From Ignavibacteriota bacterium (GTDB lineage: Bacteria > Bacteroidota > Ignavibacteria > UBA10030 > CAVZMI01): a stretch of DNA of 64,000 nt. The first letter of the stretch is position 1. Every line of letters begins with the position of its first letter. A program made the translations under genes and the position numbers. Of the stretch, positions 29,425 through 35,850 are shown in pieces. The stretch spans positions 64,001-128,000 of the forward strand of contig CAVZMI010000018.1 of assembly GCA_963776275.1 (NCBI GenBank), given 5' to 3'. The notes beneath the pieces are model-generated. The model was not told the DNA's origin, did no database searches, and saw only the letters and a list, made by a program, of their open reading frames with translations.

Positions 29425-29854
29425 GCGGGAATAGCTCAGTTGGTAGAGCGTCCCGATGAAATCGGGACCAAGATTGATGTCACGGGAGATATAACGTGAC
29501 AGTGTTAAATGCGGGAATAGCTCAGTTGGTAGAGCGTCCCGATGAAATCGGGACCAAGGTTGATGTCGTGTGAGATATAATGTGACAGTGTTAAATGCGG
29601 GAATAGCTCAGTTGGTAGAGCGTCCCGATGAAATCGGGACCAAGATTGATGTCACGGGAGATATAACGTGACAGTGTTAAATGCGGGAATAGCTCAGTTG
29701 GTAGAGCGTCCCGATGAAATCGGGACCAAGGTTGATGTCGTGTGAGATATAATGTGACAGTGTTAAATGCGGGAATAGCTCAGTTGGTAGAGCGTCCCGA
29801 TGAAATCGGGACCAAGATTGATGTCACGGGAGATATAACGTGACAGTGTTAAAT
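29425..29854 (+). repeat. Tandem array of five 86-bp tRNA-Gly-derived units (A-B-A-B-A)
   Basis: Units start at 29425, 29511, 29597, 29683 and 29769; each begins with the first 26 nt of the downstream tRNA-Gly. Confidence 0.97.
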
Positions 29855-29927
<73 letters not shown>

Positions 29928-29975
29928 CGAGGTATCCGTCAGGGTACCTTATTTGATACACTTCCTCTTTAAATT

Positions 29976-34958: not shown

Positions 34959-34961
34959 AGC

Positions 34962-35140
34962 AAATCCGAAATTCTAAATACGAAATTCTAAACAAATCCA
35001 AAATCTAAATACCAAATATCAAAACAGGATGGGTGGTTTCTGGATTTGAATTTTTGATTTTGTATTTTTATATTGTTTAGGATTTCTCAGCCGGAGGCTG
35101 ATGCGCCTCTGGCGCAGATATTCGGATTTAGGATTTATGT
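34962..35140. repeat. Inverted heptamer-repeat element (AAATNNN x n ... NNNATTT x n) with an inserted double hairpin
   Basis: AAATCCG AAATTCT AAATACG AAATTCT... left arm and complementary TAGGATT/TCGGATT right arm; TCAGCC-GGA-GGCTGA TGCGCC-TCT-GGCGCA at 35087-35116. Confidence 0.7.
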
Positions 35141-35154
35141 TTTTGGCTTTTAAT

Positions 35155-35225
35155 GCCGGGATGGTGGAATTGGCAGACACGAAGGACTTAAAATCCTTTC
35201 AGCCCATAAAGGCTGGTGCGGGTTC
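35155..35225 (+). pseudogene. 5' 71 nt of a tRNA-Leu(TAA) broken at the T-loop
   Basis: Identical to the intact tRNA-Leu except the variable arm (CAGCC/GGCTG); stops after GCGGGTTC. Confidence 0.85.
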
Positions 35226-35330
35226 TCTGCTGCCATGGGGATTGCATTCTCGCAGACCCGCCGTCCCGACAGACGTTCTTTGATGGTTTTCGATGCAGTT
35301 ATTGGCTGTACAAGCAATTTATGCGTGGTC

Positions 35331-35419
35331 GCCGGGATGGTGGAATTGGCAGACACGAAGGACTTAAAATCCTTTGAACCGCATAACGGTTCGTGCGGGT
35401 TCAAGTCCCGCTCTCGGCA
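35331..35419 (+). tRNA. tRNA-Leu (TAA)
   Basis: Acceptor GCCGGGA/TCTCGGC, AAGGA-CTTAAAA-TCCTT, long variable arm GAACCG/CGGTTC, GCGGG-TTCAAGT-CCCGC. Confidence 0.96.
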
Positions 35420-35471
35420 CAGATACCCAAAAATTCTTTTTAAAAACCGTCTGTCGGGACAAGCAGGCGGG

Positions 35472-35489
35472 AAGTCCCGCTCTCGGCAC
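35472..35489 (+). repeat. Direct repeat of the tRNA-Leu 3' end
   Basis: AAGTCCCGCTCTCGGCAC identical to 35403-35420. Confidence 0.9.
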
Positions 35490-35537
35490 GAAATGGCAAG
35501 GAAAAAGCAAGAAGGAAAAAGTAAAAAGTATGATTAG

Positions 35538-35570
35538 AAGCTGCTGGATTTCCAGTGGCTTTTTTATTTT
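35538..35570 (+). terminator. Rho-independent terminator after the tRNA-Leu locus
   Basis: AAGCTGCTGG-ATTT-CCAGTGGCTT followed by TTTTATTTT. Confidence 0.7.
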
Positions 35571-35583
35571 ATAGAATGGTTCT

Positions 35584-35850
35584 AGGCCGGAGGCCTGCCC
35601 CTGCCTGCGTGCCGGAGGCACTCCGGTAGGCAGGCGCCGAAGTGCCCGCTTCGCCGAGCGAAGCGAGGCGAGAAACGAAGGCGTGGCCTGTCCGCTGCCG
35701 GAGTCCCGATTTCTCGTCCTGAGCCTTCGGCCCGAGCTCAGGCCGAGGGCTTGCTTGCCCTGAGCTTGTCGAAGGGCTTGCCGCGAGCCCCTCGGCATGC
35801 TCGGGGCAGGTTTGTCGAGCGGTCGAAGGATGTAGGGATGTAGGCGTGAT
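35584..35850. repeat. Cluster of nested GC-rich REP-like palindromes
   Basis: CCTGCCTGC...GTAGGCAGG, CGCTTCGC-CGA-GCGAAGCG, GCCCTGAGCTTGTCGAAGGGC, CCCTCGGCATGCTCGGGG. Confidence 0.75.

Follow-up and report, generated by a model that had tools for sequence, protein, structure and literature searches.

How does a bacterial genome come to carry one complete leucine tRNA gene inside another? The question is raised by positions 35155 to 35489 of the window, which here means the whole 64,000-nt stretch analysed (Ignavibacteriota bacterium, assembly GCA_963776275.1, contig CAVZMI010000018.1, forward-strand positions 64,001 to 128,000). The DNA comes from a metagenome-assembled genome (MAG) of 38 contigs (3.7 Mb, 96.4% complete, 5.3% contamination), called G000 below, in which the window lies on contig C18; it was compared with G001, a genome of the same genus, and G002, which belongs to another genus of the same family. 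The 71 nt at 35155-35225 (3' end GCGGGTTC) and the 17 nt at 35472-35488 together make up an 88-nt tRNA-Leu(TAA) cloverleaf, which is split in its T-loop by a 246-nt insert, and 89 nt of that insert are themselves a tRNA. The original prediction, made from the letters of the stretch, had described this arrangement, and its coordinates, sequences, paired variable arm and cloverleaf fold of the joined gene were all recovered here; as explanations it had offered an intron-like nested pre-tRNA or the scar of a T-loop-targeting element with a replacement tRNA. We consider it likely that the insert is a non-autonomous, T-loop-targeting hairpin element, which brought a replacement tRNA as cargo into the resident tRNA-Leu(UAA) gene. 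The parts of the locus are as follows.

34959..35154, + strand: spacer upstream of the outer tRNA-Leu, part of the resident locus; a 31-nt REP-like hairpin is inserted in it at about 35088-35118
35155..35225, + strand: 5' part of the outer tRNA-Leu(TAA), resident and by our reading now dead, running up to the T-loop (...GGGTTC); identity with G001 71/71
35226..35256, + strand: left end of the insert, hairpin 1 (TCTGC, 21-nt loop, GCAGA), with the layout and the position after TTC found in nine other copies of the H family described below
35257..35275, + strand: left arm of hairpin 2 and of the inverted repeat (CCCGCC + GTCCCGACAGACG), pairing with 35448-35471
35276..35330, + strand: leader of the cargo tRNA, 55 nt, the last 14 nt of which (35317-35330) equal the 14 nt upstream of the G001 tRNA-Leu
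35331..35419, + strand: inner (cargo) tRNA-Leu(TAA), intact, called by ARAGORN, with 35420 as its last base, and by Rfam
35420..35447, + strand: trailer of the cargo tRNA, 28 nt, without a terminator-like site
35448..35471, + strand: right arm of hairpin 2 and of the inverted repeat (CGTCTGTCGGGAC, AAGCA bulge, GGCGGG), the right end of the insert, pairing with 35257-35275; its GGCGGR end abuts the 3' half of the T-loop, as in the nine other H copies
35472..35488, + strand: 3' part of the outer tRNA-Leu (T-loop AAGT, 3' strand of the T-stem, 3' strand of the acceptor stem, discriminator), joined to the 5' part in G001
35536..35573, + strand: terminator-like hairpin and T-run of the resident locus, common to G001

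Which of the two genes is the working one was addressed by comparing them. The inner gene, which the original prediction had called intact, scored 57.3 bits in Rfam, and the interrupted outer 5' part scored 24.9 bits, below the gathering threshold; the inner gene is also the sole tRNA-Leu(taa) among the 46 tRNA genes that ARAGORN found in the 3.7-Mb genome. The predicted folding energies are -35.5 kcal/mol for the joined outer gene vs -35.8 kcal/mol for the inner one. Their first 45 nt and last 27 nt are identical, and the variable arm is the only difference, its stem being fully paired in both (CAGCC/GGCTG in the outer gene, GAACCG/CGGTTC in the inner). Such a difference, restricted to the variable arm with both stems paired, suggests that two tRNAs diverged under selection, rather than a decaying duplicate. 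The GAACCG/CGGTTC arm is absent from both G001 and G002, and a family-specific 41-mer of the tRNA body matched just G001, G002 and one G001-like metagenome contig. Judged by its arm and its pairing, the cargo is foreign, functional-looking and under selection.

The history of the site can be read from the orthologous locus, the comparison of which disclosed a precise empty site. At the syntenic place in G001, where the flanking genes are 97.4% and 93.7% identical to those of the window, one uninterrupted tRNA-Leu is found; it matches the outer 5' part over all 71 nt, passes directly into the outer 3' part and continues into the common downstream spacer and terminator, with no base lost or gained and no target duplication. 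An uninterrupted gene at this place indicates a DNA insertion in G000. The joined (empty) form was also identified in one JGI metagenome contig and in one Logan contig of run X1 (alignment that "skips 246"); since both look G001-type, they are not independent of G001. In G002, a single tRNA-Leu gene follows the same upstream gene, and the upstream spacer of the outer gene is collinear in blocks with that of G002 (a score reached by 11 of 500 shuffles), suggesting that the outer copy stands in the ancestral context and is thus the resident gene. The G001 upstream spacer is unrelated to those of G000 and G002, and a decayed tRNA remnant looked for in it was not significant (137 of 1000 shuffles). 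The outer halves show no change relative to G001, which fits a recent insertion, as far as 88 nt can tell, that being weak evidence. According to these comparisons, the locus is a real and recent DNA insertion.

The identity of the inserted DNA is suggested by its ends. The 246-bp insert (35226-35471) appears to be a member of a small genus-specific family, here named H, which was first met as a recurrent insert of 46 or 63 nt in broken copies of tRNA-Ser(gga), tRNA-Pro(ggg), tRNA-Thr(cgt) and tRNA-Met, where it occupies the T-loop. Hairpin 1 of H, starting at the first inserted base, reads TCNGC(C), a loop of 19-21 nt and (G)GCN'GA (stem of 5-6 bp); hairpin 2 reads YCCGCC, loop, GGCGGR, and finishes with the final base of the insert. 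This layout is repeated in the Leu insert (TCTGC, 21 nt, GCAGA, then CCCGCC ... GGCGGG), and the small hairpin that had been noticed at its start, now placed at 35226-35256, is hairpin 1. A regular expression for the left half (hairpin 1 plus YCCGCC) matched exactly 10 sites in G000 vs none in a reversed-genome control, and one of the ten is the Leu insert (C18:99226, length 246). The variable stem position is complementary in all ten (C-G, T-A or A-T), with or without the complementarity filter; TTC precedes nine copies, the GGCGGR closure stands before RA in ten of ten, and a tRNA 3' end follows in seven. Three copies occur in a non-tRNA repeat, between GTTTC and GATC, indicating that the target is a short sequence rather than the tRNA as such. 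The nine other copies measure 46 or 63 nt, those in tRNAs being found where a tRNA copy is truncated or broken in some other way and an intact one stands beside it, and the Leu copy alone has cargo and a long second loop (196 nt). A pattern that includes the junctions gave nine matches in G000 and three in G001, with three single matches among the other 59 relatives and one control match in the 61 genomes. A 17-nt H loop motif matched in 8 of 277 genomes of the order, with real H copies just in G000 and G001; six single loop-motif matches were rejected as H copies, the layout being absent and the sequence coding-like (judged by eye).

The H copies outside tRNA genes are located at G000:C6:30511, C15:79221 and C31:16054, with a further one in G001 (L050), and the GTTTC-GATC site belongs to another dispersed repeat, of which an H-free copy lies near tRNA-Pro(tgg) in G001. 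After tRNA-Leu(cag) of G001 (L058), there are two T-arm fragments in tandem, and an H-type element interrupts each of them; one of these elements has a CCCGCC/GGCGGG second hairpin like that of the Leu(taa) insert, and the other has a divergent first hairpin.

A 19-bp stem enclosing the inner gene had been predicted, and it proved to have 13 bp in perfect pairing and a further 6 bp on the other side of a 5-nt bulge, formed by 35257-35275 with 35448-35471. No pairing of 13 bp arose in 300 shuffles of the two flanks (shuffle maximum 10), and the stem is present in the minimum-energy and centroid folds of both RNA and DNA (z -3.95 and -3.89). The arm 10-mer CCGTCCCGAC, part of the 13-bp inner stem, occurs 21 times in the genome vs 3.7 expected and makes hairpins within dead copies of tRNA-Thr and tRNA-Val, where one such hairpin has an inner stem extension of its own; the repeat arms of the insert are members of a dispersed hairpin family that is also found in these dead copies. 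The CCCGCC/GGCGGG arms of hairpin 2 repeat the T-stem strands of tRNA-Leu, and alternative T-arm-like hairpins can therefore form.

We propose that the 246-bp element entered between TTC and AAGT of the resident T-loop, the loop of its second hairpin holding the extra 13-bp stem, the 55-nt leader, a complete tRNA-Leu(UAA) of another lineage and the 28-nt trailer. The insertion would have killed the resident gene, the genome's only tRNA for UUA, and the cargo gene would have replaced it in the same step. With the resident gene destroyed and replaced in this manner, the outer halves are to be regarded as a fresh pseudogene, not as exons. Since cargo and resident gene share one orientation, and the only terminator-like site on the + strand between 34900 and 35700 (35536-35563) is the resident one, the promoter and terminator that serve the cargo gene are probably those of the resident locus; it would be co-transcribed from that promoter, and RNase P and 3' nucleases would then process it. 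An insertion into an essential tRNA gene present in single copy would kill the cell, so that just an element with a tRNA in its loop could have been fixed here. The element might move as folded single-stranded DNA, with an enzyme that recognises hairpins cutting and joining it in trans, as suggested by the lack of target duplication and the position 3' of a fixed short target, which recall the "peel and paste" of IS200/IS605-type elements. Candidate enzymes are the Y1/RAYT-like transposases or the tiny GIY-YIG nucleases of the genome. More speculatively, and in our judgement possible rather than probable, H could be a new minimal transposon, a double hairpin of 46-63 bp that is cut and pasted as folded single-stranded DNA between TTC and RA of T-loops, and the second hairpin of which could take up an entire tRNA gene in its loop; the cargo would then serve as an antidote, since an element could hit a single-copy essential tRNA gene and survive only by bringing a working copy, tRNA genes being replaced horizontally and Russian-doll pseudogenes left behind.

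Several results weigh against the proposal of a T-loop-targeting element with tRNA cargo. The cargo-bearing copy comes from one MAG (n = 1), and in the four sequencing runs examined (X1, X2, X3 and X14) positions 35241-35297 were uncovered, with just the G001-like joined contig being seen. These four came from a list of 17 runs, none of them of RNA. The conserved loop motif of hairpin 1 (GGTGAGGC and following bases; ..ATTAT..CGGTGAG) is present in the nine other H copies and missing from the Leu insert, for which family membership is consequently based on layout, stem sequence, junction position and end motifs; the H search pattern, moreover, was partly derived from the Leu copy, which was kept in view while it was built. 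No second copy of the full insert flanks occurs in the same genome or in 60 relatives. The cargo variable-arm 24-mer gave no exact match in the genome_contigs and metagenome_contigs collections, and the donor was not found there. The 14 nt before the cargo tRNA are those before the resident gene of G001, a match that does not follow from the simple model; a G001-like locus may have supplied the cargo, or the G001 gene may have descended from such cargo. As for the enzymes, no GIY-YIG gene lies near the Leu locus on contig C18, no GIY-YIG or Y1 gene lies in or adjoining the insert, and small GIY-YIG genes are about as numerous in G002, which is nevertheless without H.

At least one exact partial copy of at least 16 nt lies within 2 kb of 14 of the 46 tRNA genes; all 32 such fragments share the orientation of their tRNA, and ten of them begin in the T-loop, as 3'-terminal pieces 16-19 nt in length. 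The partial copies bear small GC-rich hairpins inside or in place of loops. Three structures of G000 are absent from G001: the three 148-nt units at tRNA-Gly(tcc), the H-bearing 91 nt plus a 321-nt GIY-YIG segment at tRNA-Pro(ggg) (where the BLAST pieces abut with overlaps of 18 and 20 nt), and, downstream of tRNA-Thr(cgt), the greater part of the array of dead copies. Their absence indicates that such structures turn over within the genus, and the insertion process is, on this comparison, active in it. Rfam at E up to 1 returned tRNAs and chance matches only at the eight loci searched.

The small GIY-YIG genes underlie the best placed of the rival explanations, which we nonetheless regard as unlikely, namely that the insert is a by-product of break repair: a nuclease, for instance a small GIY-YIG enzyme, would have cut the resident T-loop, the right end would have invaded a foreign, related tRNA-Leu locus and copied its trailer, gene and about 105 nt of leader, and the left end would have been joined without homology. 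G000 has 13 small GIY-YIG copies, eight of which lie within 1 kb of a tRNA gene (at five of ten loci); their open frames run to about 94-172 aa, and three translated open reading frames (ORFs; 72, 87 and 94 aa) were confirmed by Pfam (E 1e-12 to 9e-15). According to the available text of the respective reports, the GIY-YIG enzyme SegB of phage T4 recognises the tRNA T stem-loop (PMC2330249) and drives amplification of tRNA segments (PMC13096335). Duplicated tRNA parts with foreign spacers occur at many loci here, and the cargo retains 14 nt of G001-like resident flank. Beyond those 14 nt, however, neither leader nor trailer shows homology to the spacers of G001 or G002 (for G001, 482 of 500 shuffles score as well). 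Both junctions are canonical H ends, and H is also found as bare inserts of 46 and 63 nt, three of them outside tRNA genes; the cargo flanks, finally, form one 19-bp inverted repeat, which would not be expected of a randomly copied tract.

A very improbable alternative is that the locus represents the remains of a tyrosine integrase event, in which an island integrated at the T-loop and duplicated the 3' end, later deletions left a spacer of 52 nt, and the 5' fragment arose from a separate event. An intact tRNA followed by a spacer and a 17-18-nt 3' fragment is indeed a common layout at other tRNA genes (10 of the 32 nearby fragments), and on contig C15 tRNA-Met is separated from its displaced 3' end by an island of 5.4 kb. 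At the Leu locus, however, the 5' fragment ends exactly where the 3' fragment starts, and G001 joins them with no base lost or gained. The junctions (GGGTTC followed by TCTGC on the left, GGCGGG followed by AAGTCC on the right) have no common core and no gene has been rebuilt; the insert is 246 nt long, its overlapping ORFs also overlap the tRNA, and it holds no integrase gene, for which it would be too short. To the left and right of the inner gene stand the two halves of a single hairpin, and no integrase was seen by eye among the 14 ORFs of at least 70 aa listed for the C15 stretch, on which no family scan was run. Of the idea of a T-loop element with a replacement tRNA, the element and its cargo are supported by the empty site and by the two junctions, both those of a recurrent T-loop element, but the integrase crossover attached to it does not fit; the 17-nt "repeat" taken for an integrase duplication is simply the resident 3' end, near the cargo gene's own 3' end.

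Removal of the 246 nt at the RNA level appears more improbable still. Here the insert would be intron-like, or an intervening sequence cut by RNase III, with the outer halves ligated or held together as a second functional tRNA-Leu. The 19-bp stem would draw the halves together, the genome encodes an RtcB ligase, the outer halves are without mutations relative to G001, and no terminator separates the parts. Against this, the splicing endonuclease EndA (PF01974) gave no match in the 96.4%-complete genome (the control was positive in four archaea), no Rfam intron or ribozyme matched at gathering or at E up to 1, and the left stem arm is 31 nt away from the junction. G001 is without the insert, and all other H copies lie within truncated or broken tRNA copies beside an intact one. 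The intact inner copy makes splicing unnecessary, and the intron-like nested pre-tRNA once considered found no support. Last, and least credible, an assembly artefact from two strains with different tRNA-Leu alleles is in keeping with a MAG of 5.3% contamination and with junctions uncovered in the runs examined, but a strain chimera would switch inside common sequence instead of making two new junctions, these junctions equal conserved element ends found at nine other places, and the insert sequence occurs nowhere else in the assembly.

Other identities were tried and rejected. A group I intron of tRNA-Leu(UAA) was discarded on the negative Rfam search (gathering, and E up to 1) and on the position of the insert in the T-loop, not in the anticodon loop. 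A bulge-helix-bulge tRNA intron was discarded because EndA was not found and because the interrupted gene is not needed, an intact tRNA-Leu(taa) being present inside the insert. An integron cassette, a serine recombinase and an IS91-type element (GTTC target) were dropped, since the junctions resemble neither a crossover between G and TT nor a common dinucleotide (IS91-type ends or gene were not looked for).

For a hairpin element with tRNA cargo, several known systems offer partial parallels. The REP/REPIN elements with their RAYT transposases, and the "peel and paste" IS200/IS605 elements with their miniatures, are short gene-less hairpin elements that make no target duplication and insert 3' of a fixed short sequence; REPs lie outside genes and contain none themselves. 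Like the IS200/IS605 type, the Leu site is without duplication and nine of the ten H copies follow TTC, all with hairpin 1 on the left and hairpin 2 on the right. Nine matches to Y1_Tnp (PF01797; IS200/RAYT-like) were found in G000, and of its 154 YCCGCC..GGCGGR hairpins, 11 lie within 800 nt of them vs 0.7 expected; Y1 transposase genes with similar hairpins around them are present, and H may depend on a Y1 enzyme. As in REP/REPIN, the two inverted arms of the Leu insert make one long imperfect hairpin, but the Leu element lies in a gene, carries cargo, and its full arms occur just once. In the literature searched, neither a tRNA gene as cargo nor a T-loop target was found described for REP/IS200-type elements. 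An RNA-level comparison is provided by the archaeal non-canonical tRNA introns and split tRNAs, in which the interruption lies outside 37/38, the halves pair, EndA is required and the interrupted gene is functional; at the Leu locus, unlike in these, the working gene would be the inner one, and EndA was not found.

In logic, the closest published parallel is, by analogy, tRNA-dependent lysogeny in actinobacteriophages, where integration in an essential host tRNA gene occurs without rebuilding and the element brings a substitute; as far as the available text describes them, these elements are temperate phages with a tyrosine integrase and a common core of about 10 bp (Guerrero-Bustamante & Hatfull 2024; PMC10865867). 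The Leu insert likewise disrupts a host tRNA without reconstruction and carries a tRNA with the same isotype. Unlike those phages, it is 246 bp long, gene-less and hairpin-bounded, lacks a common core and holds the tRNA inside its own terminal hairpin.

Two GIY-YIG systems are also comparable. SegB is longer than the small enzymes discussed here and has a DNA-binding part. In phages T4 and T6 it is a free-standing homing endonuclease of tRNA clusters, which targets the T stem-loop and spreads or amplifies tRNA segments, according to what is available of the two reports (PMC2330249, PMC13096335). The likeness is a GIY-YIG nuclease linked to tRNA genes; the difference is that SegB is a phage enzyme, which homes from one phage genome to another, and neither an insert with hairpin ends nor a nested gene is left behind. 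The Ssn family consists of single-domain GIY-YIG nucleases (about 94 aa), which cut single-stranded DNA site-specifically next to specific hairpin repeats and have a role in transformation; in the available portion of that study (Chenal et al. 2025; PMC11893778), tRNA is mentioned zero times. The small GIY-YIG ORFs of G000 likewise adjoin GC-rich hairpin repeat families and are candidate members of cd10448. Unlike what is found here, the role described in the available text on Ssn is in transformation, not insertion, and the Leu locus has no GIY-YIG gene. A full-text search of the literature, covering the main articles, found no account of one bacterial tRNA gene enclosed by another, or of a hairpin element that carries a tRNA.

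If the proposed insertion of an H element with its cargo is correct, single-copy essential tRNA genes could be replaced horizontally and in place by a few hundred bases of DNA without a mobility gene of its own, and such replacement would differ from the known islands and phages that land in tRNA genes. On the more speculative view of H as a minimal transposon, it and the tRNA-linked GIY-YIG cassettes would constitute a so far undescribed layer of selfish DNA on tRNA genes. The rapid change of variable arms between close relatives may stem from replacement, not from point mutation. The system would be tractable, having a defined target (between TTC and RA in the T-arm), defined ends and candidate small nucleases or transposases for folded single-stranded DNA. 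It would also account for nested and fragmentary tRNA matches in MAGs, which matters for tRNA gene annotation, a problem raised in the available part of an earlier report (PMC9897764).

Broken tRNA copies of several other designs were observed in the genome. Within the window, tRNA-Gly(GCC) (29855-29928) is preceded at 29425-29854 by five tandem 86-nt units, each a dead tRNA-Gly copy that is exact over its first 26 nt, with a GTCCCGAT..ATCGGGAC hairpin in place of the anticodon arm and another hairpin in place of the T-arm; two variants of the unit alternate. At G000:C10:40586-42065 (L031), four units of 349 nt come after an intact tRNA-Met, each composed of a small GIY-YIG ORF and a tRNA-Met copy with a TCCGCC-GAA-GGCGGA hairpin in its D-loop, and in the last copy a hairpin also replaces the 5' half of the T-loop. 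At tRNA-Ser(gga) (G000:C37:20638-21400, L030), a dead full-length copy with a 30-nt D-loop hairpin and H in its T-loop is followed by a 72-aa GIY-YIG ORF and then by the intact gene, after which comes a fragment of a T-arm that bears H and a 3' end, the acceptor strand of which is unlike that of the intact gene; the tRNA-Ser(gga) locus of G001 (L037) is without the dead copy and the 5' part of the GIY-YIG ORF. A dead tRNA-Arg(tct) copy at G000:C21:225020-226577 is broken up by three hairpin inserts and followed by a DDE-transposase-like ORF (named by eye), and then by the intact gene, which has an identical 40-nt upstream flank. The island at G000:C15:149692-155212 (L047) places 5.4 kb between tRNA-Met and an H copy with the displaced tRNA-Met 3' end, and its ORFs, named by eye, include an ABC-transporter-like pair, a sulfatase-modifying-factor-like gene and others. 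At G000:C12:68240-69406, a Y1_Tnp gene has the same TCCGCC..GGCGGA hairpin on both sides, a REP/RAYT-like layout.

Finally, repeats were also noted in the spacers around the Leu locus. In unrelated metagenomes from peat, wetland and sediment, four stretches of the window (34962-35005, 35070-35126, 35583-35639 and 35697-35753) reach a very high summed contig depth, the highest being about 3000 (run X3, 35697-35753), and they seem to be repeats common to many organisms. The hairpin repeat of about 30 nt (TCAGCCGGAGGCTGA..GCCTCTGGCG) at 35088-35118, in the spacer before the outer tRNA-Leu, has a close copy in the D-loop of the dead tRNA-Ser(gga) at G000:C37:20658-20687, and its core GCCGGAGGC occurs 28 times in the genome vs 6.6 expected.

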